DNA from: Pseudomonadota bacterium
Lineage (GTDB): Bacteria > Bdellovibrionota_B > Oligoflexia > Silvanigrellales > Silvanigrellaceae
NCBI GenBank assembly: GCA_039799905.1
Contig: JBDLRP010000046.1
Coordinates: forward strand, 39,756-103,755
Direction: 5' to 3'
DNA length: 64,000 bases
Part shown: positions 12,183 to 49,166 of the stretch, in pieces
Layout of the letters: every line of letters starts with the position of its first letter
Numbering within the stretch: position 1 is the first letter of the stretch
Notes under the pieces: model-generated
What the model saw: only the letters and a program-made list of their open reading frames with translations
What the model was told of the DNA's origin: nothing
The model's database searches: none
Program-made: the position numbers and the translations under genes

Positions 12183-12246
12183 ATCCAGCTTAGCCCTCAA
12201 ATCTTCTTACGTATGCAGTTACCTAGGCCCCCTAGGTTCAAAAAAA

Positions 12247-13023
12247 TCAATTGTGGTCGACTGCTGCAAGAAAAAAATCCAATAGACACTCAATGTCTTC
12301 CTGCTTGTGAAGATAGTATGAGGCAGAAAGAGGGGAGTCGAAGCCGACCTTGACAGAAAAAATGTCTGGGGACTTATCCAAAAAGACAACCTCATCGGTC
12401 ACATCATCACCAATGAAAAACGCTCTTCCTCTAGAGAGTGTTCGCATTAAATCATGAAGTGCATCAAGTTTATTTGGCAGACCGTTCGGAACTAGGTTAA
12501 TTACTCGCTTGCCGAGAACGAATCTGGCTTCAGGCGCGAGACTTCGAATTTCAGCAATCAGCGATGTGAATTGAGGTGACGACTTGACTTCTCGGTAATG
12601 AATTGAAAGAGAGTACTTCTTATCCTCAATCCAAAGTCGGTTTCTTCGATACCTCTGCGTTACAACACTGAGAGCCTCCAACCATTTGCGGGTTGAATTG
12701 AATGCCCCTTCAAGGTTCTCTCCCGACACACGAGAGTGCCCTTCAAAACCATGGCTCCCAACAACGACACTGATAGAATTTGGCAACCTCGGCCGAACAT
12801 CTGAAATTGAGCGCCCTGTCAAAACCACCACTTTAGAGCGTCTGGCTAACTCATCCAGCTTTTTATACGCCGAGGGTGCCATAAATACCGAGTTTGGCTC
12901 GTCTATTATGGCCGCTAGTGTTCCATCGAAATCAAAAGCAAACAATGGAGCTTTATCTTTGGAAAGAAACTCTAGCAGGTCAAATCTTGCGGATTCAGAG
13001 AGAATATCTTGACTCTGTTCCAT
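12247..13023 (-). CDS. otsB: trehalose-6-phosphate phosphatase (HAD family)
   Basis: FDFDGTLA, LTGRS, GSHGFE, IEDK..SLSIHYR, FIGDDVTDE. Adjacent to otsA. Confidence 0.92.
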   Translation of the reverse strand: MEQSQDILSESARFDLLEFLSKDKAPLFAFDFDGTLAAIIDEPNSVFMAPSAYKKLDELARRSKVVVLTGRSISDVRPRLPNSISVVVGSHGFEGHSRVSGENLEGAFNSTRKWLEALSVVTQRYRRNRLWIEDKKYSLSIHYREVKSSPQFTSLIAEIRSLAPEARFVLGKRVINLVPNGLPNKLDALHDLMRTLSRGRAFFIGDDVTDEVVFLDKSPDIFSVKVGFDSPLSASYYLHKQEDIECLLDFFLAAVDHN

Positions 13024-13038
13024 TATAAATTTCGCACC

Positions 13039-24519: not shown

Positions 24520-26961
24520 ATGCAACGCATCGTCGGTTTTGGTCTTGGCCTGCGCCCAAATCACTACAAAGATTGGATCGGCGCTGATGAGGGGCTCTGG
24601 GTGGAAGTGATGAGCGATAACTACATCCACCAAGCGGGTGGGCGTGGTGTGTTTCACCTTGCACAGGCCATCAAGGACCGACGTGTGGTGATGCACGGTG
24701 TCGGGCTCAATATCGCAGGCGTTGAGAAATTGAACAGCCACTATCTCGACGGACTCACGGCGTTGGCCGAAAGAGTTCAGCCAGAGGTGCTTTCCGACCA
24801 TTTGTGTTTTACGCGAACTGCGGGCCGCTCCACCTACGACCTGCTGCCGTTTCCCTACACTCGCGAAAACCTTGGTTGGGTGTCCCGAAAAGTCAACGAG
24901 GTTCAAAGAATCCTCAAACGCCGATTGAGCTTGGAAAACCTATCCCGCTACGTAGCATTCATTGATGACGAGATGAGTGAATTCGAATTTCTCTCCCGCC
25001 TCTGTCACATGACAGGATGCGGAATTTTGCTTGACGTAAACAATGTCATAGTTTCAGCCACAAACCTCAAACGCAACGTAGATTCAGATTTGCTGTTACT
25101 TGAACCGTGGATGGTGACTCAGTACCACGTGGCAGGACACACAAAACACGACGGCTGGCTTCATGATACACACGACCAACCCGTTAATTCCGACTGCTGG
25201 AAGCTTCTGAGCTCCTGCCAAGAACGGTTTGGTCATCAGCCTGTGATTTTGGAAAATGATGAGCCTTCAACTTCCTTCAGCGCTTTGCTTGAGGAAGTTG
25301 ATTCCGGTTTGAGATTGTCTCCGCCGGCAAATTCGACTGTCTGCGACGCACCGAATCATCTCAGAGAATTTCAAAATCACTTTGTCAATATCGTTTACAC
25401 CCCTCCATGGAAGGAAATCTGTGCACGAAGTGAGTCTGTTGAAGTCACCCGAGTCAGGGATGACTATATTGAACAGCTCGATGTTTACCGGCATTGCTTT
25501 TTTTCGCGAATCACAACCACTTTAAGTGACACTATTCTGCTCCCACTCACTCAGGAATACGGACACGATCGAGTCCATGCGTGGCTTGCCAACTACGCCA
25601 TCGAGGCCGGATTCAATGCCACACTCCTGCAAGATAATTTATCGGGTTTTATCGGGTATCTCGAGAATAAGAAGGTAGCAGACCAGTATCCTGGCATTTC
25701 AGAAGTACTGAGTCTTTGCGTCGCGCGCTGGAGCGTTCTCACGTGTGTGGACAAAGAGATTAAATTTGTTGAAGCGGATACATCACTTCACGAAATCTAC
25801 CAAAATCCGACAAGCCAATTTGTTTTTTCAGATCTTTCCAAAACTGATTCAATGTCTGCCGCTTCAGTGGACTTATCGAAAGGAGCAATTTCAAAAGTGG
25901 TCTTCAGAACATCTCCGGCTGAGCTTCACACTCACCCTATTCCGATTGAGTGCAGCGACATTGCCCATTCCCTTAAAATGGGCCGATCACTGACCTACGC
26001 ACTTGAAAATGAAGGACTGCATCACAGCGAAAGCGCTGCACCCGTTGTTCAACAATGGCTTGCTTCGATGTTTAAACTGGGTGGTCTCACAGCACGTGCT
26101 CATTCCGTTCTTCTAGCTTTCGTTGCTTTTTTCTCTCTTGAGAGTACTGCAAGTGCTGAGGTCTGGAAACTGCAAACTGAGCGCCTGATTCAGGTGAGCG
26201 GAAGCCTGCTCGACGATATTCCTGCGGGCGTTACAACCAACAGCTCCCTTTTGGGCATTGATCTCGGTGGAACTGCAACTTTGCTTCCACGAGTGGATGC
26301 AAAGGTTGGTTCAAAGCAGGAGGGCGTTCCACGTGCACCAGCTCATTTTGTTCCAACCCTTGCACTGAGCGCATCGCCGGATTCACTTTTGGCATCAAAG
26401 TACTCCTTTGCACTGCGCGGCTGGTATGGCCTTCTTCCCGCAACAGTCTCGCGTCTGGTGGTCGGAAGAAACACTCAATTCGACCAGAGGAAATTCGGAC
26501 TTGAATTTTCCGCTCTTGAAAAAGGAGAACAATTTTTCGCGGGAATCAGTCTCGGGGGCAAGGCATTTTATCAAAGCGGCGACGCACAACTGAAGGGATA
26601 CTTTTCGACCCAGGATCAGGGGCAAGCAAAGGACTCGTTTGCCGTCACAACCTCGGCTGCCGGAATTTCTTTAATTGCTTTGCATGACTCGTCAGGAGTC
26701 TTCTTCGAAACTATCGGATTCCTCCGCACAAGCAAAAGTGAGTTCTACATTTCAGAAGACGACAATCGCATCCTCGTTGAAGATGGCCTCAACGGGAACT
26801 CCCTTGAGCTGGGCTCCGGCGGACTCGGAGGGCAGATTTCCTTGGGCTGGAATCCGAACTCTTACTTTCAGATTGGCTTTTCACAGCTCATCCTTCCTGA
26901 AAGATATGCGGCTCCGCGCGTCTTCCTGCGCCTTCAACACTCATTAATTTCGGGGACATGA
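24520..26961 (+). CDS. multinuclear non-heme iron oxidative enzyme (DUF692/BufB-like) fused to a DUF2063 (BufC-like) domain and a C-terminal putative outer-membrane beta-barrel
   Basis: aa ~1-262 has GLGLR, MHGVG, SDHL, DLLP, LEN, LLDVNN, YHVAGH, DTH, LENDE (DUF692 Fe ligands). aa ~280-515 has LREFQNHF...QLDVYR...GFIGYL...YPGISEV (DUF2063-like). From aa 517 there is a signal-peptide-like segment followed by amphipathic beta-strands. Confidence 0.85.
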   Translation: MQRIVGFGLGLRPNHYKDWIGADEGLWVEVMSDNYIHQAGGRGVFHLAQAIKDRRVVMHGVGLNIAGVEKLNSHYLDGLTALAERVQPEVLSDHLCFTRTAGRSTYDLLPFPYTRENLGWVSRKVNEVQRILKRRLSLENLSRYVAFIDDEMSEFEFLSRLCHMTGCGILLDVNNVIVSATNLKRNVDSDLLLLEPWMVTQYHVAGHTKHDGWLHDTHDQPVNSDCWKLLSSCQERFGHQPVILENDEPSTSFSALLEEVDSGLRLSPPANSTVCDAPNHLREFQNHFVNIVYTPPWKEICARSESVEVTRVRDDYIEQLDVYRHCFFSRITTTLSDTILLPLTQEYGHDRVHAWLANYAIEAGFNATLLQDNLSGFIGYLENKKVADQYPGISEVLSLCVARWSVLTCVDKEIKFVEADTSLHEIYQNPTSQFVFSDLSKTDSMSAASVDLSKGAISKVVFRTSPAELHTHPIPIECSDIAHSLKMGRSLTYALENEGLHHSESAAPVVQQWLASMFKLGGLTARAHSVLLAFVAFFSLESTASAEVWKLQTERLIQVSGSLLDDIPAGVTTNSSLLGIDLGGTATLLPRVDAKVGSKQEGVPRAPAHFVPTLALSASPDSLLASKYSFALRGWYGLLPATVSRLVVGRNTQFDQRKFGLEFSALEKGEQFFAGISLGGKAFYQSGDAQLKGYFSTQDQGQAKDSFAVTTSAAGISLIALHDSSGVFFETIGFLRTSKSEFYISEDDNRILVEDGLNGNSLELGSGGLGGQISLGWNPNSYFQIGFSQLILPERYAAPRVFLRLQHSLISGT

Positions 26962-35382: not shown

Positions 35383-36333
35383 ATGTTTGCATCGGAATTC
35401 ACTTGGATTGGTGATCATCCTTTGAAATTTTCAACTCTCTTTTGCGCACTGTTGTTGACGGCCCCCATGCACAAGGCACTTGCCGTTGATGTGGAACATT
35501 TGATGAAATCCGGAGGAGAGGCTTTTGATTCCATCAAATCAAAAGGCCAACAAATGTATGAAAGCGGGAAATCAACCACCGGTGAGCTGCTCGACAAGGG
35601 TAAGGAAACGACCGGAGAGCTGTATGAGAAGGGCAAAGAAACCACCGGAGAGCTGTATGAGAAGGGCAAAGAAACCACCGGAGAAATAATCGACAAGGGA
35701 AAGAAAACCGCCGTAGATACATACGATAAGACCGTTGAAATGGTGAAAAAGGAACGCACCTCGCGTGACAACCGGAAAGACTCGTTTCTGACCCTGAACT
35801 TGAGCCCATTTGTTTATTTTTCACTTCCTTTGCCGAAATCCGGCTTTCAAATAGGTTGGGTGATCAATGAAGGTTGGACTGTTGATCCGGAATACCTGTC
35901 CGGCAGTTTTGGTTTCGATGTCGCAAAAATTTCGATTGGTGAAATCTCCGAAACACTCATCAGCCTTCCCCTCAGATACTTTCCGGGCAACAATTTCAAC
36001 TGGAAATTCGGCGGTACATACCGAAAACTTACAGCCGTTCTTGGCAACACCATCCTTGAAAAGATTGTCAATCGCCCCACCACACTCGACTTACTGGAAT
36101 ACAAGTTTTATTCGATCAATTTAGGCCTAGGAAACAGATGGCAATTGAACAATGGAATCACGCTCGGTGCAGACTGGCTCGATTTCAACATCCCCGTTTC
36201 AGTCGAAAGGAACGAAATCATAACATCGTACATCACAGATGAAAATGACAGGAAAAATGTCCGGAGGGGAATCGATATTTTAACTGCCCTTCAGTTCACG
36301 GCGCTCAAATTGCAGATTGGATATACCTTTTGA
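35383..36333 (+). CDS. secreted protein with 11-aa amphipathic repeats and a C-terminal outer-membrane beta-barrel-like domain
   Basis: Signal ending ALA|V, (GELYEKGKETT)n repeats, beta-strand-rich C-terminus ending LQIGYTF. Confidence 0.7.
   Translation: MFASEFTWIGDHPLKFSTLFCALLLTAPMHKALAVDVEHLMKSGGEAFDSIKSKGQQMYESGKSTTGELLDKGKETTGELYEKGKETTGELYEKGKETTGEIIDKGKKTAVDTYDKTVEMVKKERTSRDNRKDSFLTLNLSPFVYFSLPLPKSGFQIGWVINEGWTVDPEYLSGSFGFDVAKISIGEISETLISLPLRYFPGNNFNWKFGGTYRKLTAVLGNTILEKIVNRPTTLDLLEYKFYSINLGLGNRWQLNNGITLGADWLDFNIPVSVERNEIITSYITDENDRKNVRRGIDILTALQFTALKLQIGYTF
35578..35709 (+). repeat. 33-bp coding tandem repeat, four units (units 2 and 3 identical)
   Basis: accggagagctgtatgagaagggcaaagaaacc at 35611 and 35644, with degenerate copies at 35578 and 35677. 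Confidence 0.9.
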
Positions 36334-36383: not shown

Positions 36384-37067
36384 TCAAAACTCAATCACCA
36401 TGTGAATCTGCAGCGGCTGGGTGGGAACTTGCTGAGAACGATCGGAAGGAGCGGCGACGGGGGAGTACTGCGGTGACGAAAGAACGTCGACCAGACACGA
36501 CTGTTGTTCTTCCGAGAGAGTCACGGTCGTGTTGATAAGAAGAAGTGAGTGATCTGAAACGCGCCCGTTGGCAGGATTGAACGTCGCGCTCCAACGAACA
36601 CCTCCGCCACGCTGGGCACCTTTTAAACAGTCGGAAAGGCGCGGACTCCTCGCCAACACCTGCCTACGCAGGGCCTCAAACCACTCGGGTGCAGCCTGTT
36701 CACGCACCGTAAATTGGCCACGCTGAAGCTCACCCTGTTTGCCGCGCTCCGCCTTTGGAGTTTCGGGACGCACAGTCCTGAGAACAGGTGCCTTGCTGCC
36801 GGATGGTTGTGGTTGAGTGTCAGGCTGAGGGACAGCTGTTGGAGTGCAAGAGCAGCGGCTGATAACCAGCACAGCGATCGCGGCAACAATCAACAAAGCA
36901 GCGACCAGCCTGCCCCTTTTTGTCTTTTTAGGAAACCGCTTCTCAATGCGCTCTCGATGGACATTCTGCGCTTGAACGAGTGACGCCTTTAACTTTTCGA
37001 GCCGTTCGCGCGCTGCTCTTTTTGCAGAGCTCTGATCAGATTTTGGATCCAGCGGGCGTTGCGTCAC
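36384..37067 (-). CDS. bitopic membrane protein with Pro-rich linker and TonB-C/AgmX-PglI-like C-terminal domain (operon gene 12)
   Basis: Basic N-terminus, one TM (LVAALLIVAAIAVLVI), PQPDTQPQP linker, then LSDCL...GGVRW.ATF...GRV...SCLVDVL...IHMVIEF. Confidence 0.6.
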   Translation of the reverse strand: MTQRPLDPKSDQSSAKRAARERLEKLKASLVQAQNVHRERIEKRFPKKTKRGRLVAALLIVAAIAVLVISRCSCTPTAVPQPDTQPQPSGSKAPVLRTVRPETPKAERGKQGELQRGQFTVREQAAPEWFEALRRQVLARSPRLSDCLKGAQRGGGVRWSATFNPANGRVSDHSLLLINTTVTLSEEQQSCLVDVLSSPQYSPVAAPSDRSQQVPTQPLQIHMVIEF

Positions 37068-37070
37068 GGC

Positions 37071-38963
37071 TTACTCCACAATTTTCCAGCCAAGCACAAG
37101 CGATTCTCCCGCAGACCACTGTTCGGGCACAACCAAGATCGGAGCAAAAGGCTGTGGCGAAGAAGGTTTGGGAGCAGCGTATGGCCAGGGCAGTGGGTCG
37201 GTCGGTGCAACTCTGACGTGACCCACAAAGACGCCGTCCTGCGGATTGTACCCGCGTGCCTTTGTGGCCATCGACGACGCAGAATCGGTCGAAAGAACCC
37301 GCAGAATCTCGTGAGCCCTCTTTGAAAGCTTCTGCAGATTTTCGCCGACCCGTCCTTTTATTTTTCCGCTGCCATCCTGCAAATCAGAGAGCTTCTGCAG
37401 AATCGGCGCCATGCGCGTGCGGACCTGCGTATCTTCAGATTCAATTCTGTCCAGCAGCAAACCAGTGAAGCGCAATGTACTGTAAGGTTCTTCTTCCAAC
37501 CGACGCATCAGCCGGCGTGCAAATTCCTTCACCTCGCCTTTGGCCAGCAACAACAGTTGTTCCACACGGATTGCCGCGGCACTCCTCATGCGCAGTAGAG
37601 TCATCAACCGCTCGAATGAGCGCACGTCGGATCGCAGCGCTGCGCGCCATGCGAGATCTTCGAAAATCACCGAGTAGGCATCCTTGGGTAAGACTTCTTT
37701 GAGCACTGCCACCAGATCGGGAGTAACCCTCCACGTTCCAGAAATGTAGCTAATCCAACGTCTTGCCAATTGAGAGGCGACGGAATCATCACCCTCTTCC
37801 TGTCCGCTGTAGTTGATGGCGAGTCCGAGGTTCTTCAGGGCGTTGTGTACGTCACCGTTTTCCAAAGCGGCAAGCCCCCGCCGGAGGGCAATTGCCGGCC
37901 GTCCGAGAAATCCGCTCTGCTTGTCGAGCGAAAGCAAACGGCTTCCGCGCTCGCCTGACCAGATCTCACGCAACTCTGCTGGACTCGCATCCACGCTGTA
38001 TAAACCGATCCAGTTGCTCAACTCGCTGCCGACCTGTTGATCGATCAGTGCATCGAGAATGGGAATAATTTTTCGTCTGTCGGATACCCTGTCCGAACTC
38101 CCGGCAAAGACTTTTTCGAATAAGAAAAGCCGACGCGATGAGGGCAGCGCCATCCAGTCGGCTACCGTCCATTCCTCGGCGTCTGCGAGTATTTTTTCGC
38201 TTTCCTCGGTCAATTCGGAGCGGCCCATCAAAAACAAATGCAAATCGAAAATACGCGCCTGCAGCACGGGGATCCCCTGAACGTCGCGCATCTCAGAACT
38301 CGCCTTGTTAAGAACATCAATCATCAATTTTGCTGCTTGCGGTCGGGCAAGCTGCGTTTCTTCTAACAAATAGTTGAAGTAGTCCATACCACCACGGCTC
38401 AGGATATTGATGACCGAGCAACTCCCTTCGGGGAATTTGAGTGTGTTCAACTCCTCGGGCGAGAGAACGTCCCGTGCAGAAATTTTTCGTTCCTGTCGGC
38501 CACTGGAAAAGGCGGCGAACGGACTCACCGGCGGAGCCGGTTGTCCCCTGAAGAGAGAATTTAAAATCAAATTATGGACCGCCACAGTCCACAGACCATG
38601 TGCGTCTTGAGGCATGTCTTCAGGACACACTTTGAGTCTCGCCATCGCCAGCCAAGCGGCAGATGCTACGGTAGACTCCTGCACCGGAGCCGAGCCGCGA
38701 ACACTCGTCAGTGTATTCTTCAAAAACCACACTTTAAGTGCATCTTCGTAGCGGCGTGCGGCAATGAATGCGCGAGAACTGAGAAGCAATTGCTGGTCGA
38801 CGGCTTTTTCGCGTTGGCCGGACTCCTGGAGCGATAAATTTTCGCGGAGCGAGGGCGACGACCGCGCAGAAGAAACTTCTGCACACACCCCCACAGAGCT
38901 CCCAGAAAAGCAGGCTGCAATGAGCAAAAAAACAGCCGATTTATCTGCGACCCTAACGCGCAT
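37071..38963 (-). CDS. large secreted alpha-helical (TPR-like) hypothetical protein (operon gene 11)
   Basis: Signal-like N-terminus, helical repeats (RRGLAALENGDVHNALKNLGLA), Pro-rich C-terminus. Start overlaps the upstream stop. Confidence 0.7.
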   Translation of the reverse strand: MRVRVADKSAVFLLIAACFSGSSVGVCAEVSSARSSPSLRENLSLQESGQREKAVDQQLLLSSRAFIAARRYEDALKVWFLKNTLTSVRGSAPVQESTVASAAWLAMARLKVCPEDMPQDAHGLWTVAVHNLILNSLFRGQPAPPVSPFAAFSSGRQERKISARDVLSPEELNTLKFPEGSCSVINILSRGGMDYFNYLLEETQLARPQAAKLMIDVLNKASSEMRDVQGIPVLQARIFDLHLFLMGRSELTEESEKILADAEEWTVADWMALPSSRRLFLFEKVFAGSSDRVSDRRKIIPILDALIDQQVGSELSNWIGLYSVDASPAELREIWSGERGSRLLSLDKQSGFLGRPAIALRRGLAALENGDVHNALKNLGLAINYSGQEEGDDSVASQLARRWISYISGTWRVTPDLVAVLKEVLPKDAYSVIFEDLAWRAALRSDVRSFERLMTLLRMRSAAAIRVEQLLLLAKGEVKEFARRLMRRLEEEPYSTLRFTGLLLDRIESEDTQVRTRMAPILQKLSDLQDGSGKIKGRVGENLQKLSKRAHEILRVLSTDSASSMATKARGYNPQDGVFVGHVRVAPTDPLPWPYAAPKPSSPQPFAPILVVPEQWSAGESLVLGWKIVE

Positions 38964-39696
38964 AGCCGAGTCCAATTGTCAGGTCGGCATGTTTCGGCAT
39001 GGCCGTTCCAAGTATGGAGAGTGCGAGCATTGCTTTTGAACTGATGATAAGACCGCCCGAAGTGTAGAGGTGCAGGTTAAATCCTGTCAAAACGGCAATC
39101 TTTGCTGAATCAATTTTCATTGCCGCAGGTGCCGACGGAGAGAGCCGCTCTTTGTCGGACTCCGAGAGACGGGTGGCAATCAGTGATTTAAAACCATTGG
39201 AAAAACCCTGCCCCGACAAGAGTGAAGGGTAGATCATGTAGCGCACATCAGCCGCAAGAGAGAAAACCATTTGTGCCGCAGGCATAAAATCGGGCCTGAA
39301 AGTCACCACTCCCTCGGCTACCGGATAAAAACCACTCAGTTCCAATTCCCATCGTTCCGGTCGACCGGTTTGCCGGTAAGGCATCAAGGCAATCGCATCA
39401 GCAGACTCAGTCGAGAAGACAAAAGCCTTGGCCAAGCCGAGGCCGATCGTCATATTTTCCGAGGGAAACTGAACGGCAGCAGCTGCTCTGTAGGTCTCAA
39501 AATTGTTGTACTCAACCGGCTGCCCAACATTTGCAAAAACAAGGGATTGCTTCTTCCGCCAATCAAAACGGACAGACTTTCCTGCCACGCCGACGGTTCG
39601 CTCGACCAAAGCGGGAAACGGAATGACGTTCTCGGCAGCAAGTGCAGCCGACGGCCAGAGGAGTGCCAGTGAGAGAAGATTTCTTTTAAGGATCAA
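38953..39696 (-). CDS. putative outer-membrane beta-barrel protein (operon gene 10)
   Basis: AGGAGG RBS before in-frame TTG 39696, signal ending ALA|A, alternating beta-strands ending LTIGLGYAR. The longer ORF to 39972 only overlaps the upstream gene. Confidence 0.65.
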   Translation of the reverse strand: MILKRNLLSLALLWPSAALAAENVIPFPALVERTVGVAGKSVRFDWRKKQSLVFANVGQPVEYNNFETYRAAAAVQFPSENMTIGLGLAKAFVFSTESADAIALMPYRQTGRPERWELELSGFYPVAEGVVTFRPDFMPAAQMVFSLAADVRYMIYPSLLSGQGFSNGFKSLIATRLSESDKERLSPSAPAAMKIDSAKIAVLTGFNLHLYTSGGLIISSKAMLALSILGTAMPKHADLTIGLGYAR

Positions 39697-41716
39697 CTGG
39701 AAATCCTCCTTCCGGCGGGCGAGGAAAACGCGGCCTGTAGCAATTGGTCTGCAGTGCATCGCGCCAAGTTTGTCGCGCATTATAGGTTCCGCTTTCATCA
39801 AAAAATGGATGCTCGCAAAATCGTGTGCATTGGAGAAGCGCGTTGCCGATTTGAAAGTCCTGCTGCGTCCAACCGCTGCTGCCATAGGATTGCTGTTGAT
39901 TGAATGAAAGACCAAACGGAACGCTTGCCACCACTGCATTTGCGCTTCCGGCCAAAAAATTTGTGTATTCAAGGCGCAGAAGAAAGGGAAAGTCCCAGAT
40001 CAGACCGAGCTCATATGACCCGCCTTGCGAGGCTGAGTGCACCGCAGGAAGGTTTCCCAAAGGTAGCGGCTGCTGCGCGGCAGCGGCAGTGCGGAAGTAA
40101 AGTCTCGATGCGTCGGTAGAATTGGCGGCACAAAAACTGAAAAACTCCCCATTGCCAGCCGTCACACGCTCGTTGTTGAAAAACGTCACCCAAGCAAAAT
40201 CACCCAGAGCTACGTCGGTGGAAATCGCGGTTCGTTGTGGAGCCAATGCGCTGAGAGAATTCATTTTACCCGCATTAGCCTCGGAAAACTTGCTGAGAAA
40301 GTTTTCGTACGACTGTCGAGAGGGAAGGATAGGAAGGCTCGACAACTGCACGGGTCCCAAATTCAATGGGGGACCATCTGGCAGCACTGGACACGAGCGC
40401 TGCGACTCATCTGGAGCAGCAAATGGATCGACTCTGGGATCGACGAATGTTGAGGGACACCAGAGTGCCAGATTCTTGATCAGTGGATTTGTGACGACAT
40501 GCTGGCTTGAGTCAAAAACGAATGCACCGGTGACACGGGGAGACACCCGAGCACGTTCATCGGGTAAAATTTCTGCCAAAGTCTGTTCTAATTTCAACAC
40601 AAGATTTTTCGTCAGATCGTCATGATTCAGTGCGATGTAGAGTGTCATGTCGTTGCCGGCTGCACGAACCTGACTGATTCGTTCCTGAAAAACTGCACTC
40701 ATGCGGTCTTTGAAATCGGCCTGACTGAAGTCATCGGAGCAGATTTCAACCGGACTTTCCAACAGCAAGCGCTGCTTTTGCATGTTGAGATGCTGAAGCG
40801 AAATGGTCCGCCGACAGGGTGCAATTACGAAACCGACAGACGTGGTGCTTTTGACCGGACTGCGCAACGAGGAAAATGCGGCGCGGGTCTCCGGATTTTT
40901 CCGTGCAAACGCCGTGGCCGTAAAGCTGCCGGTTGCATCCTTGACAGTTGCCGACGCACAAACGGAATCCGCCGCAGATGCGGACGCAGGCAAGGCCCGC
41001 TGGTTGAACGCAGCGCGCTCGTTGGTTCGGACGAGATCGTCGACACCGGCCTGACTGTAAGATTGTGGGCAAGCCGGCTCTGCTCCGTAAAGGTATGGAT
41101 TTTCAGGTTCCGCAGTCGACGTATTGCCAAAAGACTGGTTTGTGATCTCGAACATGCGCCGCAGTCCGAGTGCCTGCGCTTCTTCGTTGCGGAGTGCGGG
41201 GAATACGTGTCGCCCGCGCCATTGAACAAAGGAATTGGACTCATCGAAGACTCCATAAACCACAAAGCTTCGATTCTGATGGGCGGTACCGCTCCTAATT
41301 ACAAATGATTCAGGCTTGACCACTGCGGAAATCTCGCCGTCGCGGTGATAGCGGAGGCGAAATGAAAGCGCGCGCGGCTCCTTGACCACTTTGTGACTTG
41401 CACTTCCGCAGATGCGGCCTGCGCCGCAGGAGACAGACTCGTGAATGTGAACCTGTTCACGACTCTGCGGGGCCAACCAGCCAACCTGACCGTCGTCATT
41501 CACATAGCTGACCTCAAAGACACTCTCAGAACGTAAACCGAGTGGTGAGCCGACGTTCCAAAAAAAGAACAGAGTCTGCTCGGCCTCATACCAAACCGCC
41601 TGAGCGATTTGAAACTGCGCCGGCGTGTATTCGAGTGGCACCTTGCTGCATGAGTGCAACAAAAATGCGATGAACGCGGCACAGATTTTTGAGACTTTCA
41701 AACCATTCAATTTCAT
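39686..41716 (-). CDS. large Cys-rich beta-rich lipoprotein (operon gene 9)
   Basis: Lipobox LHS|C, multiple paired Cys (CGAGRIC, CTRFC). ATGA overlap with the upstream gene. Confidence 0.75.
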   Translation of the reverse strand: MKLNGLKVSKICAAFIAFLLHSCSKVPLEYTPAQFQIAQAVWYEAEQTLFFFWNVGSPLGLRSESVFEVSYVNDDGQVGWLAPQSREQVHIHESVSCGAGRICGSASHKVVKEPRALSFRLRYHRDGEISAVVKPESFVIRSGTAHQNRSFVVYGVFDESNSFVQWRGRHVFPALRNEEAQALGLRRMFEITNQSFGNTSTAEPENPYLYGAEPACPQSYSQAGVDDLVRTNERAAFNQRALPASASAADSVCASATVKDATGSFTATAFARKNPETRAAFSSLRSPVKSTTSVGFVIAPCRRTISLQHLNMQKQRLLLESPVEICSDDFSQADFKDRMSAVFQERISQVRAAGNDMTLYIALNHDDLTKNLVLKLEQTLAEILPDERARVSPRVTGAFVFDSSQHVVTNPLIKNLALWCPSTFVDPRVDPFAAPDESQRSCPVLPDGPPLNLGPVQLSSLPILPSRQSYENFLSKFSEANAGKMNSLSALAPQRTAISTDVALGDFAWVTFFNNERVTAGNGEFFSFCAANSTDASRLYFRTAAAAQQPLPLGNLPAVHSASQGGSYELGLIWDFPFLLRLEYTNFLAGSANAVVASVPFGLSFNQQQSYGSSGWTQQDFQIGNALLQCTRFCEHPFFDESGTYNARQTWRDALQTNCYRPRFPRPPEGGFPVDP

Positions 41717-43527
41717 GAAGAGATCAGTTCCACCCAGCTGAGTTTTTGCGAGGTATACTCTTCAACCAGATTCTCCGAGAGTTTATTGCGGGCCAGCGCA
41801 GGATCGCGGCGGGGTCCGGCGGCCGCGGCGGACAAGGCGTTGGCAAGAGAGTTCGGCATTGCCGACTTGATCGCATCGCGGAACGATTGCGACTGTTCGG
41901 AAATCCACGCAGCCAAACTTGCAATGTCGGTATTGAGCATTAATGAAGTGCGCTGATCGGCAGACAACTTGAGCAGCATTTCGGGAAAGAAGATGTACTG
42001 CATCCAGTCGGGAGGCTGTCCGCCGTGCGCCTGAAGTCCCAGCTTTACAACTTCCTTACGCTGCTGGGGTGAAATCATCGGAAGTAAAACCGACAATGCG
42101 GCAGCCGCGTTGATTTCCTGTCCGTGATCCGAAGCCGAGGATGCCGTTCCCAGAGAAGGAACTGGCTTTCCCTCGCTCACACAACGTGCCGCCGTCAGAA
42201 TGGCCGAGAGTTCGTCGCGGGTTGCACGGTTGGAGCGGAGTAATTCGCCTGCACAGGCCGCGCGCTCCGTTTCATTTAACAGCAGTGCCGTGGACCTCTG
42301 CTCGGATGTCGAAATGAGCGAGAATAGAATCGCACCAAGCCGCTTAGGCAGAGAATTCATCAGCTGACGGATTCCGCTCGGGCCGAACTCATCGTGTATA
42401 CGCTGATAGATTTCGGCGTCACTTTGCGAAAGTATTGTTGCTGCGAGAGCGTGTTGATTGAGAATTCTGTAGAACTCAGCTCCGCTCGGGAGGTTTTCGT
42501 TCTTTGCATCCTTGAGATATTCGCTGAACTTGATTTTTCGTCCGGCAAATTCTCCATCTTCAGGAAAATCTGGCTTCACAAGTCCGTCGAATTCAAGAAC
42601 AGCTTTGGCCAGCATCGCGTAATTCTCGTCACGCAACCAGATGACGAACAAAGACTTAAGAACCTTGGGATCCTTTTCTATGCGTGAACGCCAGAGCATT
42701 GAATGCTCGGCAGCAAAGGCCTTCTCGATGGTCTCGACGTCGAGAATTGAAGATTTCTCGGGATCCGGTTTGAGTTCCTGCAAGTCGAGAGGTTCGGGAG
42801 TTGGAGCCGTCAGCGAGGCTTCCATCATTTTCTCTTCCACGGTCTTCACACCCAGCCGGCGCCAAGCCCAAATCAGAGCCAACACACAGATCGTCAGCAA
42901 AATCCCGCCAAACATGGCAGGAAAATAGGGTAAGAGGCTGAGCCACAATTCGCGGAACAAACCCTCTTTGCCGACTTCTGGTCCGGCAGGCTTCTCGGCC
43001 TTTTTGTCGTCGACTTTGTCTGCAGCGGGCGAAGCCGCGGGAGTTGGGAGTGGAGTTGGAGTCGACTTGAGAGAGTCGGGTAGCGGCGGAAGCTGTTTCG
43101 CCTCGACAGTCACCACCGTATAGCCTTTGCTGAGCTTCTGCTCGAGGCGGCGGACGAGTGTCTGCCTGTCTTTGGCGGGAATGCTTGTTTCGGTTGCCAC
43201 CTCGCAACGCGCCGCCGTAAGATATTCCTGAACTGGCACAGAACCTGGGCCGCGCTCATCTCCGATCCCCGGCAGAGCTCCTTGCTTGGGTTTGTCGGTC
43301 GTGGCGTGCGACACATAGAAGCAGCCACGCGAAAAACATTTATCCGCGGGACAATCTTGCGTGAGCGCCAACTCAAATTGATTTTCAAGCCGCTTGAGCT
43401 CTGCTGCTACAGACGGCGGAATGTGCGTCTCAGGAACACCCGAGGCCGCATACGACATTGGTGCTACCAACAACCCAAGCAAAAGCAGCAAACTTTTCAC
43501 GCAACCAACTCCCAAGCTTCGATACAT
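41713..43527 (-). CDS. putative FliF(RBM3)-FliG fusion-like rotor protein (operon gene 8)
   Basis: Signal peptide, then a periplasmic ring-building-motif-like domain with LPGI, a Pro linker and one TM. IEKDPKVLKSLFVIWL resembles the FliF C-terminal helix. SLPKRLGAILFSLI...LLLNETERAACAGEL resembles FliG-M. IFFPEMLLKLSADQRTSLMLNTDIASLAAWISEQSQSFRDAIKSAMP...GPRR resembles FliG-C. Confidence 0.65.
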   Translation of the reverse strand: MYRSLGVGCVKSLLLLLGLLVAPMSYAASGVPETHIPPSVAAELKRLENQFELALTQDCPADKCFSRGCFYVSHATTDKPKQGALPGIGDERGPGSVPVQEYLTAARCEVATETSIPAKDRQTLVRRLEQKLSKGYTVVTVEAKQLPPLPDSLKSTPTPLPTPAASPAADKVDDKKAEKPAGPEVGKEGLFRELWLSLLPYFPAMFGGILLTICVLALIWAWRRLGVKTVEEKMMEASLTAPTPEPLDLQELKPDPEKSSILDVETIEKAFAAEHSMLWRSRIEKDPKVLKSLFVIWLRDENYAMLAKAVLEFDGLVKPDFPEDGEFAGRKIKFSEYLKDAKNENLPSGAEFYRILNQHALAATILSQSDAEIYQRIHDEFGPSGIRQLMNSLPKRLGAILFSLISTSEQRSTALLLNETERAACAGELLRSNRATRDELSAILTAARCVSEGKPVPSLGTASSASDHGQEINAAAALSVLLPMISPQQRKEVVKLGLQAHGGQPPDWMQYIFFPEMLLKLSADQRTSLMLNTDIASLAAWISEQSQSFRDAIKSAMPNSLANALSAAAAGPRRDPALARNKLSENLVEEYTSQKLSWVELISS

Positions 43528-44156
43528 CAGTAGACCCGCACAACCACTCTGCGGTGTCGTGCCAATCGCTCCTCTTCCGACAGTCCGGCCAACTCGGCAT
43601 CAGGCAACGGCTTGGTATCCGCATAAGCCTCAACCCTGATTTTTTGGCGCGGAATACCAAATCCCTCGAGTCTTGCACGCAACTCAATGGCACGTGAACT
43701 TGCAAGTTCCCAGTTCGATGCAAAGCGACCGACACCGTTGACCACGGGAGTACTATCGGTATGGCCTTCCACGGCGAAAGAATATTTTCCGCCGTACGAG
43801 GAGAGCGATTTGAGCATCTCGGTGAGTGTTTGTTCCCATTCAGTGCGAATGGATGCGCTGCCTGAATCAAACATGATTCCGGAGTTCAGTGACAGCGCAA
43901 GTCCGTCATCATTGAGCGCAGTCCGAACCACTTTCTCGAGGCCGGCGACTTTAATTTTTGCGTCAATTTCACGTTGAATGGATTCAAGGCTCTGGGCACT
44001 TTCCTCTCCGCTGAGATTACGCGCAATCTGCTGCATCTTCACACGGGAAATTTGCGCTGCAGACATCAGCATCGCAAAGAACAGCAACAGATTGGTGATC
44101 AGATCGGCATAGGAGAGAAGCCAACCCTCCTCGGATCCTTTGGTACGCCGCTGCAT
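43527..44156 (-). CDS. motB: MotB-type stator subunit (TM with conserved Asp, plug, OmpA-like peptidoglycan-binding domain) (operon gene 7)
   Basis: WLLSYADLITNLLLFF, plug-like ISRVKMQQIARNL, VEGHTD, NWELASSRA, HRRVVV. Confidence 0.9.
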   Translation of the reverse strand: MQRRTKGSEEGWLLSYADLITNLLLFFAMLMSAAQISRVKMQQIARNLSGEESAQSLESIQREIDAKIKVAGLEKVVRTALNDDGLALSLNSGIMFDSGSASIRTEWEQTLTEMLKSLSSYGGKYSFAVEGHTDSTPVVNGVGRFASNWELASSRAIELRARLEGFGIPRQKIRVEAYADTKPLPDAELAGLSEEERLARHRRVVVRVY

Positions 44157-44159
44157 ACC

Positions 44160-44861
44160 TCAGCCCTCCGCCAAAAGATCATTGACGCTCTTTTGGCAAC
44201 GCTCCACCATTCCGATGCGCTCATCGAGAAGGGTGTTGAGATAGTGACTGATTGGACCAGCGATTCCGGCTCCGAAGGCCACTCCGTACAGCGTTGCTGT
44301 CAGAGCGAGCGACATTGCGGTGCCGATATTCGTATTGTCGGAGGTCATGTTTTTGAAGAGTTGAATCATGCCCGTGATGGTGCCCACCATTCCAAATGAC
44401 GGGCCGAGTTTTGACAGCATTTCCCAATTGTGGATGGCCGGCTGCAGCCTCTCGATTTCGTCGTGACGAAGTTCAGTGAACACCTTTTCTGACGATGCGC
44501 CAGCTGCCCTGCGCAGGAGAAGTTGGACAAAAACCTTGCTTGACTCAAACTCAGACTTGTCCAAAAACTCGAGGACCTGCGATTTTTTTCCTTCGCGCCA
44601 CAGCGTACTGATTCGTTCACGTTCGTCGTCCATCAGTTGTGTCTGCCTTGAAAATCGACGCAGCCCCGGGATGAACTCCTTGAGACAGGTCAGTGTTCGG
44701 AGCGCCGTTTTGCTGCTTGATCCGAGCAGCACTGCGGCTGCGCAACCGACAAGCACCATCACGAGTGCGTGTGGGTCGAAGGCGGAGACCTGAGTCATGT
44801 TGCGCGGACTGAACCCGATGGCGATGACGACGAACAACAAAATGATTCCAAACAGCTGCAT
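44160..44861 (-). CDS. motA: MotA-type stator subunit (MotA/TolQ/ExbB channel family) (operon gene 6)
   Basis: From ATG 44861: two N-terminal TMs, WREG...LE, GPSFGMVGTITGMIQLFKNM..IGTAMSLALTATLYGV...PI. The ORF extension to 45080 only overlaps the upstream gene. Confidence 0.85.
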   Translation of the reverse strand: MQLFGIILLFVVIAIGFSPRNMTQVSAFDPHALVMVLVGCAAAVLLGSSSKTALRTLTCLKEFIPGLRRFSRQTQLMDDERERISTLWREGKKSQVLEFLDKSEFESSKVFVQLLLRRAAGASSEKVFTELRHDEIERLQPAIHNWEMLSKLGPSFGMVGTITGMIQLFKNMTSDNTNIGTAMSLALTATLYGVAFGAGIAGPISHYLNTLLDERIGMVERCQKSVNDLLAEG

Positions 44862-44880
44862 TGCCGACCCCGATGAAAAG

Positions 44881-45534
44881 TTATTTGCTATTCTTGTTGC
44901 TGCGCAAATCTTCCAGTTTTTTGCGAACCGACGGATCACTTTCGATCTCTTCAGACTTCTCCCAAATCTCGATCGCCTTCTCGCGTTCGCCCACCAACAG
45001 CAGAATTGAACCCTTGGCTCTGAGAAATTCAGGATGCGAGGGATACCGTGAGAGCACCATTTCAGCATACTCGAGAGCAAGTGAATAATTGGCGTTTCTG
45101 ATTGCCTCTTGCATCAGACTGCGCGAACGCGAGACACTCACATCAGGTGCGTTCTCGTTCACCTTCAATCCTCGCTCGCGATAAGCCTCGGTAAGCGACT
45201 TATCTGCAGCAACCGGCGGCGGAGGAACCAAACGCGTTGTGGGCAAAACCTTGACCTTCTGATTGTCCGCACTGTGCTCAACAATCACTCTTTGCGACGA
45301 AGCCAGCATCGGGATGTCAACCTCAGTGAGAATCTTGCCGTCGTTCCAGCGAACCTTGAGCGCAGTCGTAGAGCCGACACTTTGCGGCTGCAACGGCCGC
45401 CCTTCTTCCCTCAATGAGTCATGCCCGCGCACAGCGTTGTAGATGAGATAATGAGTGTAATTGCGCGGTGTGGCACAACCGGCCAGCAAGGCGGCGAAGA
45501 TGAAATTTAACAACAAAGACAATGAATTTTTCAT
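44881..45534 (-). CDS. TPR-containing lipoprotein (operon gene 5)
   Basis: Lipobox LAG|C; C-terminal TPRs (NYSLALEYAEMVLSRYPSHPEFLRAKGSILLLVGEREKAIEIWEKS). Confidence 0.8.
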   Translation of the reverse strand: MKNSLSLLLNFIFAALLAGCATPRNYTHYLIYNAVRGHDSLREEGRPLQPQSVGSTTALKVRWNDGKILTEVDIPMLASSQRVIVEHSADNQKVKVLPTTRLVPPPPVAADKSLTEAYRERGLKVNENAPDVSVSRSRSLMQEAIRNANYSLALEYAEMVLSRYPSHPEFLRAKGSILLLVGEREKAIEIWEKSEEIESDPSVRKKLEDLRSNKNSK

Positions 45535-46517
45535 GGCACCACCGGAAGAAATGAGCTGTTGAGGGTGGACACGCCGATTCCGACTTTGCCGTTGGTCGAG
45601 ACAAAGAAATTAACTGCATAGTTGCCGTTAAAAACGGGCACCGGAAGACGAGCAATGCCAACAAGTGTCAAAAGCGGATCAACAAACTGCGTCGGTGCAT
45701 CGCCTCCAAAATTTCTTGTCAGCGATCTGATCAGCGCCGTTGGCACGCTCATCAAAAGTTTTCCTCCGAGCATTGCATTCATCAGGTTCGGAAAGGCCTC
45801 GCCATAGGAAGCACCCAATCCTAACACCGGATCAAGCAACGAAGCGGAAACGCCAAAAAACCGCTGATTGAAGCTTCCCCACTGCTCAAGAAAGTCGAGT
45901 GCAATGTGTTGAGACGGATAAAAACCCAAATCAAGAACCGCATGGGTCAGGCTGTCGCCTCGGTGCCTACGTAGAAGGTCTTTGGAAGCGGTGTAGTTCT
46001 GCTGGCTGCGCTGCTGGGCGGAAAAAGCGGGCGAGATATTCTGGGCGAAGACAACTCTGCCCGACACAAGTGACACACCCCTTACGGTGATGCCGTCTGA
46101 ATTTTCAGAGATCCACCAGCCGGTTTGTGACGGTGGAGTGGCACCTCGCATGGCTGAATCGAAGTCTGAAATATCAGCAAGTGTCATTGAATCGGGAGAG
46201 ATGACCTCCAGTCCGGAATCGCGGATTTTGCTGTGACTCGCAGAGCAACCCTCGCAATAGCGAACATTCGCAGGGCCAAATGCACCACGAAGACTCTGTA
46301 TAGACCTGTCGACGAATGAACTCCGGCTCTCTTCATACGAAGGCACGGCTCGGACGATAATGGTGGGAAAAATCTCGCCGGCATTCAACGCAAGGCTGTC
46401 GAGCTGATCGCGCAAAATCTCTTCAAGCCGCAGGAACGACTCTGCTGTGTTCTGACGCTCGGCATGCGCGGAGGATTGCCAAAATAAGGCGATCAAAAAA
46501 GTTAAAATCAGAACCAA
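45531..46517 (-). CDS. secreted protein with CxxC and C-terminal beta-barrel-like region (operon gene 4)
   Basis: GGAGG RBS before in-frame TTG 46517, which overlaps the upstream stop. Signal ending AHA|E, YCEGC, C-terminal beta-strands. Confidence 0.65.
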   Translation of the reverse strand: MVLILTFLIALFWQSSAHAERQNTAESFLRLEEILRDQLDSLALNAGEIFPTIIVRAVPSYEESRSSFVDRSIQSLRGAFGPANVRYCEGCSASHSKIRDSGLEVISPDSMTLADISDFDSAMRGATPPSQTGWWISENSDGITVRGVSLVSGRVVFAQNISPAFSAQQRSQQNYTASKDLLRRHRGDSLTHAVLDLGFYPSQHIALDFLEQWGSFNQRFFGVSASLLDPVLGLGASYGEAFPNLMNAMLGGKLLMSVPTALIRSLTRNFGGDAPTQFVDPLLTLVGIARLPVPVFNGNYAVNFFVSTNGKVGIGVSTLNSSFLPVVP

Positions 46518-47755
46518 AATCCCACCTCCATTCCGGCGGACTGAAATTCGAGCCCTGCGTCCAGGTAGGTGCCGAAGTTCTGCGAACCAGCAAATGCCGG
46601 CATGGACTCCAGGAAAGCGGACAGGCTGACTCTGTTCTTGACGCGTGCCTCGAGTGCCAATCGAAACGAAGAAAAAGATGCTCGCGGTTGAGTGCCGTTG
46701 CGATCTGCAATGATTTCCGCGACGTTGATTGTACTTTTGCGAAAGGTCGCAGCGGTGCTTCCGCGCAGGTTTGTCACCGCACCGCCGACGACAAAATAAA
46801 GGTCGGGCTCCGTGAGAGAGCGCATGCGACCTGAAATCAGCCTGGAAAAACGCCCACCGGCAAGCCAACCGTCATGAGAATCCACTTGGTTTGTGATGCC
46901 GAGATTGAATTCAGCGGTCCAAACTCTGGACTGTGAGAAAGACGTTTCGGCCCCTGCAATGAACCAGACGAGTGGAGGGATAACGACCGCGGCAGTTGCA
47001 GTAGGCCGACCAAAGGGATCTGTTTCTGTGGTGTTCTGCGAAAGAGCAAAATTGTGAACGCCAACACGAATCGGAAATGAGAAGAACGGGTTGTTTCGAA
47101 GAATGTCCAAATACTCCTGCCGCGCCTCGGATGCGCTTTTGAGATTGGCGGCGCTTCGCAATAGAACCGGCGACGTTGTCGAAGTCGAGATGGTTCGGGC
47201 GTAGACTATTGGCAGATTCTCACGGATTTCGGTCACTCTTCCGCGCAGTACCAACTGCGATTTTTCAGCTTCAATATCCAAAAATATGGCGTATTTTGCC
47301 ACCGTTCCAATTCCTGCCGAAGACAAAATCTCATTCAGCCGCAGCCCGCGTCCCATAATTGTTGCGCGCGGTCCGGAATGAGCAACAACAGCACTGCATT
47401 CTGGACAATGAACCAAGTCCATTTTTGTTTCTGAATTCTTGAGAATCAATTCGGCAAAGTGATTCTCAAGATATGCAGTCATTCCTGCCCCAAAACCATA
47501 GGGCACATTGACCCCGGCAAGCACAACGTTGGAACGCGTGGAAAAAATCGGATTCGCCTTCAATCCAAAAACAAACTCATCCAGCAAGTCGGCTGACATG
47601 AGCTGCAATTCGGATGCGACGGACGCACGCGACTTTTCAAGCAAAACAACTTCATCCGGCATTAACGGTTCATTTGCAGCCGCAGAAAGGACACAGAAAA
47701 AAGACGCCACAACTGCCATCAGCTTCAGAACGTGTCGTATCATCAAAGAAGCCAT
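46508..47755 (-). CDS. secreted protein with CxxC domain and C-terminal outer-membrane beta-barrel (operon gene 3)
   Basis: Signal ending SAAA, HCPEC, beta-strand-rich C-terminus ending GMEVGFWF (terminal Phe typical of BAM substrates). Confidence 0.7.
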   Translation of the reverse strand: MASLMIRHVLKLMAVVASFFCVLSAAANEPLMPDEVVLLEKSRASVASELQLMSADLLDEFVFGLKANPIFSTRSNVVLAGVNVPYGFGAGMTAYLENHFAELILKNSETKMDLVHCPECSAVVAHSGPRATIMGRGLRLNEILSSAGIGTVAKYAIFLDIEAEKSQLVLRGRVTEIRENLPIVYARTISTSTTSPVLLRSAANLKSASEARQEYLDILRNNPFFSFPIRVGVHNFALSQNTTETDPFGRPTATAAVVIPPLVWFIAGAETSFSQSRVWTAEFNLGITNQVDSHDGWLAGGRFSRLISGRMRSLTEPDLYFVVGGAVTNLRGSTAATFRKSTINVAEIIADRNGTQPRASFSSFRLALEARVKNRVSLSAFLESMPAFAGSQNFGTYLDAGLEFQSAGMEVGFWF

Positions 47756-48390
47756 TGCCAGTCACCCGTATGTGTACAAAGTCCCGCGTGTAACTGCGTC
47801 TCTGCCGGATTGATTTGAAACAACGCCAACAGTTTTTCGTTTTGGCCAAGATGGCTCGCATACTCGCGGCACAGGATTGGCAAACCCTCAGTTATCTTCA
47901 TTCCCGAAAAAGCAGCCACGGCACTCACTCCCAAAACCGGCGACTGGTCGAAAACTGAATCGCGCAATTCGGACAGCGACGTCTTTGCTGCCGTTGCAAC
48001 TTTCTCTGCAACCAGCGGGTCGTCATGAAAGGCCTCGATACGCCAAAGAGTCTTTTCTGGTGCCCGTAATTTTGCAGTTCTGACAAGTTCGGGAATCTGG
48101 GCGGAAAGTCCGGACAAGAGTGACTCTACGGGCGCCCGACGCTCCGCCATAGGAAGAACACGACCTGTGCATTCCATCAGGTCTTCGTTCATAATTTCGC
48201 CGCGCGGAAATGCTTCATGATTTTCTTCGGACAAACGGCGCCGCATTTGCTCACCGGTGAGCAACCTGCACTCTGCGTCGCTTGAGGTTTCGCGGGCCGT
48301 GCGAAAGAGCCCCGGTGCCGGATCGAAAATTCCGCTCAAAATGAGCGGAACGACAACATACAATGATGCCAAATAGAAAATCAGCATCAT
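47743..48390 (-). CDS. membrane-anchored periplasmic hypothetical protein (operon gene 2)
   Basis: N-terminal hydrophobic anchor, four Cys, ATGA overlap with the upstream gene. Confidence 0.7.
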   Translation of the reverse strand: MMLIFYLASLYVVVPLILSGIFDPAPGLFRTARETSSDAECRLLTGEQMRRRLSEENHEAFPRGEIMNEDLMECTGRVLPMAERRAPVESLLSGLSAQIPELVRTAKLRAPEKTLWRIEAFHDDPLVAEKVATAAKTSLSELRDSVFDQSPVLGVSAVAAFSGMKITEGLPILCREYASHLGQNEKLLALFQINPAETQLHAGLCTHTGDWQWLL

Positions 48391-49166
48391 TTTCTCCCTG
48401 CGTTCTGGGCTGATTCCATCAGTATCGCCTGCTGCCGCATGCCGGCATTCAAAATCAGCTGGCTCATCTGTGCACGCAGGTCACTTGTCATTTGCCGACC
48501 GGCAGAGTCCTCGTTGATCTGCTCAGCGTTCGAACGAAAGAAAAAATTCGCTGCGGCATTGAGGGCCATGTAGCCAAGGCCCGTGTACTCAATGAAACGC
48601 ATCTGAAATGTTTCGTCCTTCAAGACAATTCCATCTTTTCCGCGGATGATGATGCGCTGTTCATCGGTAAACTCTTCGACTATCGGGATCAGTGAAAGTG
48701 AATAGTAAAACAATATTCCCAGCCATCCATGCTGCTCATGCCTGACACGTTTGGCAGACAATTCTGCTGTCAGATGAATATTCCTGTCGGACGTTTTCTT
48801 TGCAGGCGCACGCCCCCCAACGAACGTGTCTTGAGATATTTTCACCGAAGCCTCGCCTGCTTCAGTATTGGGCGAATCGAGTTCAGCATCTTCACCGGAA
48901 TCGACGGGACCCACGAAAACCCGAGCACCCTGAGCCTCAAAATGAGCCGAGAGATTCCCGCAGAGCATGTTCGCGTTCTGACTGGTCAGGAGTGGTCCAA
49001 CCTCACAGATCAGGCGAATTGAGAAATCTTTGAAGTTGTTTTCGGAAAACTCGATTGCAAGCGGCTGCCTGATGGCACCGAGTGGATGGTAAACCACAGT
49101 CGCACAGGCACTGAGAGTTGTCGTTGCCAAAAAGAGCGCGAACAGAGCGCAGTTTCTTCCAAGCAT
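48387..49166 (-). CDS. hypothetical lipoprotein (operon gene 1)
   Basis: Lipobox LSA|C; internal hydrophobic segment GWLGILFYYSLSLIPIV. Confidence 0.72.
   Translation of the reverse strand: MLGRNCALFALFLATTTLSACATVVYHPLGAIRQPLAIEFSENNFKDFSIRLICEVGPLLTSQNANMLCGNLSAHFEAQGARVFVGPVDSGEDAELDSPNTEAGEASVKISQDTFVGGRAPAKKTSDRNIHLTAELSAKRVRHEQHGWLGILFYYSLSLIPIVEEFTDEQRIIIRGKDGIVLKDETFQMRFIEYTGLGYMALNAAANFFFRSNAEQINEDSAGRQMTSDLRAQMSQLILNAGMRQQAILMESAQNAGRK

Follow-up and report, generated by a model that had tools for sequence, protein, structure and literature searches.

A twelve-gene operon of Silvanigrellaceae and Myxococcota pairs a flagellar-type stator with a candidate fused FliF/FliG-like rotor protein

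The locus

The window analysed here is a stretch of 64,000 nucleotides from a Silvanigrellaceae bacterium (GenBank assembly GCA_039799905.1, contig JBDLRP010000046.1, positions 39,756 to 103,755). It carries an operon of 12 genes (36384-49166) that share one orientation and abut each other, with gaps of -35 to +19 bases; the eighth of them, X604, encodes a protein of 604 amino acids (aa) that appears to join a periplasmic domain, a transmembrane (TM) helix and a FliG-like cytoplasmic half (Table 1). The open reading frame (ORF) is as an earlier, sequence-only reading had described it, and base 43527 is indeed common to the TGA stop of motB and the ATG of X604; the X604 stop in turn overlaps the start of the 676-aa gene downstream. 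The remainder of the operon beyond motB and X604 was absent from that account. Two gene starts in the operon are approximate (45531..46542; 38953..39690). Pfam scans and locus comparison revealed no flagellar or type III gene within the 12-gene block, be it fliM or fliN, export apparatus, rod, hook or filament.

Table 1. Positions in the window of X604, its parts and the other operon genes, with the paralogous modules elsewhere in the same genome
Feature	Position	Strand	Remarks
X604, fused rotor candidate	41713..43527	-	604 aa: signal, RBM-fold domain, Pro linker, TM, FliF-C-like helices, FliG N/M/C-like
Likely Sec signal peptide, residues 1-28	43444..43527	-	cleavage putative
Periplasmic RBM-fold domain, residues 36-149	43081..43422	-	long hairpin; loop 78-99 where FliF carries the collar
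Pro-rich linker, residues 150-186	42970..43080	-	low model confidence
Single TM helix, residues 201-222, then basic WRR motif	42862..42927	-	
Two helices in place of FliF C-terminal tail, residues 259-299	42631..42753	-	assignment not significant
FliG-N-like segment, residues 300-370	42418..42630	-	weakly supported
FliG-M-like domain, residues 371-453	42169..42417	-	EHPQ replaced
FliG-C-like domain, residues 474-600	41728..42108	-	torque-helix fold; canonical charges mostly absent
Lipoprotein, first operon gene	48387..49166	-	no known family
Membrane-anchored 215-aa protein	47743..48390	-	no known family
Secreted CxxC-domain protein ending in Phe	46508..47755	-	likely outer-membrane barrel (by eye)
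Secreted CxxC-domain protein	45531..46542	-	paralogous to its upstream neighbour; probably a beta-barrel (by eye); approximate start
TPR lipoprotein	44881..45534	-	homologous to TPR proteins of two paralogous modules (96.9%, 95.3%)
MotA of flagellar-stator type	44160..44861	-	233 aa from conserved start
MotB	43527..44156	-	TM with conserved Asp D18, plug, OmpA-like domain
676-aa Cys-rich likely lipoprotein	39686..41716	-	no known family; start overlaps X604 stop
~245-aa secreted protein	38953..39690	-	likely beta-barrel (by eye); start approximate
634-aa secreted, likely helical protein	37071..38975	-	no known family
227-aa bitopic protein	36384..37067	-	layout like that of TonB, by eye only: basic N-terminus and TM, then a Pro linker and a small, conserved C-terminal domain
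Second module	L026:4814-10806 = G000:C29:99813-105805		CxxC/barrel protein, TPR lipoprotein, motA, motB, 848-aa fusion
Third module	L025:4500-10952 = G000:C19:90499-96951		small barrel and TPR protein divergent from 757-aa fusion, motA, motB

The rotor candidate and its stator

The FliG M and C domains are matched in order and over their length in the cytoplasmic half of X604, by profile as well as by fold comparison, so that the homology proposed by eye goes beyond generic MgtE_N-like helical repeats; both by-eye registers (EHPQ against SLPK, and MF.F.DL against IFFPEML) were recovered by profile alignment. The AlphaFold2 model has a mean predicted local distance difference test score (pLDDT) of 84 and a predicted template-modelling score (pTM) of 0.56. 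Ahead of these domains the picture is less sharp. The alignment of the preceding helices to the FliF C-terminus (DP..V..WL) could be reproduced but is not significant (0.5%). A FliG-N-like segment (~300-370), absent from the domain list of the sequence-only reading, may follow: the whole-profile alignment to FliG begins at FliG residue 50, the structures 3hjl and 8wo5 align from FliG residue 5-7 with a high root-mean-square deviation, and the isolated pieces give weak profile matches (0.5% and 1.1%).

The model of the periplasmic domain (helix 38-58, strand 64-77, loop, strand 100-113, helix 118-132, strand 137-146) has the alpha-beta-beta-alpha-beta order that had been predicted for it and supports an RBM-type fold of the RBM3 arrangement. 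The more specific assignment to FliF RBM3 held for the fold, in the model and in structure comparison. Descent from FliF in particular is less certain: no direct profile match to FliF was obtained, a weak two-step profile chain leads there (E 6e-4, then 4e-3), and the Z score for FliF is tied with that of the MamM C-terminal domain. Four cysteines (C59, C64, C69 and C108) are invariant in 58 of 58 sequences. The claimed cleavable signal is present as an N-terminal hydrophobic stretch; its cleavage is probable, judging from an AxA motif in 44 of 56 family N-termini compared with 26% of control windows not matched in composition, and a lipobox is absent from all 56 members scored. The Pro linker and the one TM stand as described, on the grounds of hydropathy and of a single TM-like segment after residue 40 in 54 of the 58 aligned members (two in the other four). 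Charge and cysteine distribution agree with hydropathy in pointing to an N-out/C-in topology: Lys and Arg average 3.4 after the TM and 1.0 before it, Cys 4.0 and 0.7 in the N- and C-terminal parts. X604 has a single periplasmic domain and one TM after the signal, and no N-terminal TM, RBM1 or RBM2 was found (FliF profile 0.1%).

MotB matches the Pfam families MotB_plug (46.2 bits) and OmpA (48.4 bits), both above cut-off. MotA shows homology to MotA/PomA from TM1 to TM4 and in the cytoplasmic domain, by sequence and in a quick tree, and its profile matches MotA/PomA structures only, 10 out of 10 and end to end. In that tree of 54 rows, which has long branches, the split from TolQ/ExbB (99) leaves the operon MotAs on the MotA side as a single clade (100), apart from the flagellar MotA clade that holds the same genome's own flagellar MotA. 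Judged by sequence, the stator is thus of flagellar type but private to the operon. A B subunit without plug and OmpA domain and a condensed A cytoplasmic domain, the marks of the Ton/Tol/Agl motors, are not what the operon encodes; excerpts of a recent survey count plug and OmpA domain as flagellar-specific stator features, not Ton/Tol ones (PMC12505986).

Conservation and distribution

The named matches of X604 come from Silvanigrellaceae (74% identity) and Myxococcota and are annotated as hypothetical proteins; one UniRef member of the family (P0250) is automatically named for a FliG C-terminal domain. The family comprises 61 proteins at E <= 0.001 among 7999 scored candidates, and 180 cluster representatives. 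Across 80 loci from named genomes, 63 of them labelled Myxococcota, motA-motB lie immediately upstream of the X604 homologue in 72 of the 72 with enough sequence, which bears out a tight coupling to motAB; the 676-aa gene follows in 79, and the downstream three genes are present in 68, 68 and 63 (the last being the 227-aa gene), a shortfall mostly due to contig ends. The two paralogous CxxC genes cross-match, which makes their separate locus counts unreliable. At the level of sequence comparison, FliG homology, a flagellar-type stator with an ion-binding Asp and strict gene linkage are established. Five genomes related to that of the window conserve the whole 12-gene block; in one of them motAB is inverted and lies beside it, and two of the five may duplicate loci of the 80-locus set. 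Distribution is patchy: the operon occurs in 11 of 41 related genomes and in 13 of the 201 Myxococcota sampled.

Strong divergence from FliG and the loss of functional motifs could be taken to mean that the operon is the decaying relic of a lost second flagellar system. The operon genes are, however, under purifying selection, with a ratio of non-synonymous to synonymous substitution rates (dN/dS) well below 1; frames are intact and gene order is fixed across two phyla, and 117 of the 120 listed matches of X604 keep the periplasmic domain in proteins of 589-643 aa, all of which makes decay highly improbable.

Twelve of the 80 loci are labelled outside Myxococcota/Bdellovibrionota (Enterobacterales, Rhodobacterales, Bifidobacterium metagenome-assembled genomes) and may come from mislabelled bins; four carry no taxonomic label. 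L084-L089, L094, L097, L098, L102 and L107 belong to these two groups. One genome (G035, L030:8465-9199) has an extra 244-aa lipoprotein-like gene between the X604 homologue and the 676-aa gene, and its motAB are divergent.

Paralogous modules

The window's genome holds two more proteins with the order signal, periplasmic part, TM and FliG, each beside its own motAB (848 aa on contig C29 and 757 aa on contig C19). The 848-aa fusion has two periplasmic CP..C repeats and clear FliG_M and FliG_C matches; in profile comparison its type reaches 98% against FliG and, against the X604 family, 40% over 300 columns and 92% over the post-TM segment. Its family keeps the acidic torque pair (23 of 25 and 20 of 25), and motAB is missing from the ~6 kb fetched on either side in 21 of 25 relatives. 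The TPR and CxxC partners of this module match those of the X604 operon (97% and 80%, the latter being the protein at 46508..47755, which gave no PDB match), so the operon can be regarded as a five-gene core with seven extra genes. The 757-aa fusion has an RGD-x-L/V RBM3-like motif (by eye) and a coiled coil. In two Archangium genomes (L211:3827-8915, L212:3476-8711) a second five-gene module encodes a 570-aa fusion whose FliG_C passes the Pfam cut-off.

The third module faces a giant ORF of 6167 aa (C19:71907-90410), and the genome also has a stand-alone, divergent second FliG of 318 aa (G000:C19:117561-118517); second FliG copies are common in the Myxococcota sample.

Independence from the flagellum

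The window's genome is itself flagellated, with FliF, FliG, FliM and flagellins. In five operon-bearing Archangium/Hyalangium genomes, flagellin and rod/hook matches are each found in none, no FliG_C match reaches canonical strength, and all seven MotB_plug matches lie in the operon or the second fusion module. Within the Myxococcota sample, flagellin is absent from 4 of 13 carriers, and of the flagellin-less carriers newly tested 0 of 3 had a rod/hook match, compared with five matches in each of two flagellin-positive controls. The operon is therefore retained in genomes that have neither flagellin nor rod genes. Full independence from the flagellum nevertheless sits uneasily with flagellin in 9 of 13 carriers versus 62 of 188 non-carriers.

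A rotor ring and its alternatives

The best explanation, to which we assign a probability of roughly 0.6, is that X604 forms a ring that is turned one way by a wall-anchored proton stator and works on outer-membrane partners. X604 would polymerise into a one-protein rotor ring, closed by side-by-side packing of the RBM domains and stacking of FliG M on C; MotB would hold on to the cell wall through its OmpA domain, and a flow of protons would turn MotA against FliG-C across a remodelled contact, where conserved aromatic and basic residues replace the usual charge pairs. Since FliM and FliN are absent there would be no switch, and turning would be one-way. Without RBM1-2 no export gate would be housed, and the work would go to the co-encoded lipoproteins and likely outer-membrane proteins instead of a flagellar rod. 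This output, the weakest step, would be mechanical work on an outer-membrane complex, most likely to move the large co-encoded lipoprotein or power its export. We infer that the machine works like the flagellar motor core. The 'minimal' one-protein rotor of the sequence-only reading is an apt description of X604, though not of a machine encoded by a 12-gene operon. There is an even chance that the modules represent a new class in which a one-protein rotor ring with a private flagellar-type stator, in several paralogous copies per genome, turns outer-membrane cargo without a flagellum, the 12-gene family being the most remodelled and generating torque without textbook charge pairs.

Several observations weigh against the rotating ring. 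Four of the five canonical FliG torque positions are uncharged in the X604 family and charged in 28 of 28 FliG proteins. K264 and R297 we take to be charged torque residues of FliG, and an Arg stands near R297 in 65 of 81 family members. The other three, R281, D288 and D289, are named in excerpts of PMC12505986. The His of EHPQ is Leu in 71 of 81 members and the Gln is Pro or Ala, and with EHPQ replaced the FliM-binding motif is lost. The MotA interface keeps basic and aromatic residues and loses the Glu; for the equivalents of R90 and E98 two alignments differ by three residues, and the basic residue is kept either way, the Glu in neither. In an engineered Vibrio fusion the FliG part is flexible without FliM/FliN, according to excerpts of PMC10941966.

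FliG-like part and MotA are both changed, yet neither varies much from one family member to another; a remodelled contact would account for this, and so would a non-rotating scaffold. In the latter, a ring or oligomer of X604 would dock and activate the stator without turning, and MotA would pull the 227-aa protein, which would work outer-membrane proteins as TonB does. The torque charges lost on both sides, the likely barrels within the operon and the layout of the 227-aa protein are in keeping with this. But that protein has no significant match to the TonB family (two and one of 52 members at E 0.25 and 0.0056), and no TonB-family match stands among the 25 of 34 Pfam families listed; the stator has the plug and OmpA domain of flagellar rather than Ton/Tol motors (excerpts of PMC12505986), and the paralogous modules keep stator and fusion, a weak match to the 227-aa protein (E 5e-5) occurring in L212 alone. 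We consider a static scaffold unlikely, if the most serious of the alternatives.

Myxococcota, the predominant hosts, are gliding organisms, and the operon's inventory of barrels, lipoproteins, TPR and bitopic proteins presumably resembles that of Agl-Glt, a likeness from general knowledge with no match behind it. The stator might accordingly walk X604, as an open track or small oligomer, and drag an outer-membrane adhesion complex along the cell. Such a traction motor is improbable: the carriers among sampled Myxococcota are too few for a core motility system, the RBM fold points to rings, and AglR-type motors fall in a non-flagellar group (excerpts of PMC12505986) to which the operon MotA does not belong.

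Slightly less probable still is an accessory acting in trans, as spare rotor or stator of the flagellum or as energiser of a myxobacterial type III secretion system. It would account for the enrichment of flagellin among carriers and for a FliM-domain match in 5 of 5 of the flagellin-less Archangium/Hyalangium genomes, and the Chlamydia fusion discussed below has been proposed to act with the injectisome (excerpts of PMC4768692). In the one genome examined, however, the FliM match is part of a type III secretion cluster that also contains a FliG-like and an SctJ gene of its own; flagellin is missing from four further named genomes besides the four carriers of the sample, X604 lacks the FliM-binding motif, and the 12-gene block has no flagellar or type III gene. 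An Archangium type III secretion cluster (L266:4294-15383) encodes FliM+FliN-domain, FliG_C-domain and FliK-domain proteins.

Comparison with known systems

The system has several features in common with the flagellar motor core (FliF MS-ring, FliG, MotA5B2/PomAB): FliG M and C follow one another in the same order, the RBM3-like domain bears an insertion where the collar would be, a TM and a tail precede the FliG part, and the stator combines plug and OmpA domain with the ion-binding Asp. It differs in that X604 is one polypeptide without TM1 or RBM1-2, has a 20-residue loop for the collar and four invariant Cys, and lacks torque charges and EHPQ; FliM/N, export gate, rod, hook and filament are not linked to it, nine envelope proteins are co-encoded, and it is kept in genomes without flagellin. 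The X604 system is not a member of the flagellum, as export gate, switch, rod and torque charges are all wanting.

Judging from excerpts of PMC4768692, the nearest natural precedent in print is the FliF-FliG fusion of Chlamydiaceae, likewise from a non-flagellated bacterium. That protein of ~330 aa has two TMs, an RBM2-like domain, no RBM3 and FliG-M only, hence no torque domain, and the flagellar genes listed there are FliF, FliL and FlhA only, with no stator. Engineered Salmonella and Vibrio FliF-FliG fusions demonstrate that a fused chain can build a ring, but are artificial and contain full-length FliF (excerpts of PMC10941966 and PMC4768692). ExbBD-TonB, TolQRA and AglRQS-Glt, generic ion transporters in the excerpted classification, are also ion-driven 5:2-type motors encoded with outer-membrane and periplasmic partners and no flagellum, whereas they have no plug/OmpA domain and no FliG- or RBM-like partner (PMC12505986). 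Zorya ZorAB is a MotAB-like motor with an OmpA-bearing B subunit outside the flagellum (excerpts of PMC12505986 and general knowledge); here the ZorB1 model scores 23 bits against a cut-off of 400, no ZorA is listed, the partner is FliG-like instead, and Pfam scans (PADLOC was not searched) found no nuclease or helicase domain among the 12 genes.

No published description of such a fused rotor and stator operon was found in the literature searched. A flagellar-type stator with its own fused FliF/FliG-like partner, in bacteria without filament, hook or rod genes, breaks the flagella-specific rule excerpted from PMC12505986. It provides an extant candidate for a rotor and stator that operate outside the flagellum, with implications for the origin or re-use of the motor. 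The multiple motAB pairs of Bdellovibrio-like organisms are treated as flagellar stators, FliG going unmentioned, in excerpts of PMC11323537; in predatory bacteria, additional motAB pairs are not necessarily part of a flagellum. The three proteins would make a system for torque studies, apparently without canonical charge pairs, and cultured hosts with finished genomes (Archangium, Hyalangium) make the motor testable.

Accessory genes and other features of the window

Among the accessory genes, Pfam and profile/structure searches gave a known-family match for the TPR lipoprotein only, and the barrel and lipoprotein labels were assigned by eye. The 676-aa protein shows a weak leaning in its features (0.86, below threshold) towards thiol-cytolysin/LamG clusters. 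Contig C46 has a G+C fraction of 0.504, below that of most contigs, and the operon itself 0.533. Elsewhere the window encodes a ferroportin-family transporter (58680-60023; PF06963, E 3.8e-60), a secreted protein in which four near-tandem repeats of 11 residues (type GELYEKGKETT) precede a likely beta-barrel (35383-36333), an 813-aa protein that has an MbnB/TglH/ChrH domain at its N-terminus and whose gene is divergent from that of an ECF sigma factor, with a HupE/UreJ gene nearby (24520-26961), and a cluster of trehalose synthase, phosphatase and GH15 genes (10410-15318).

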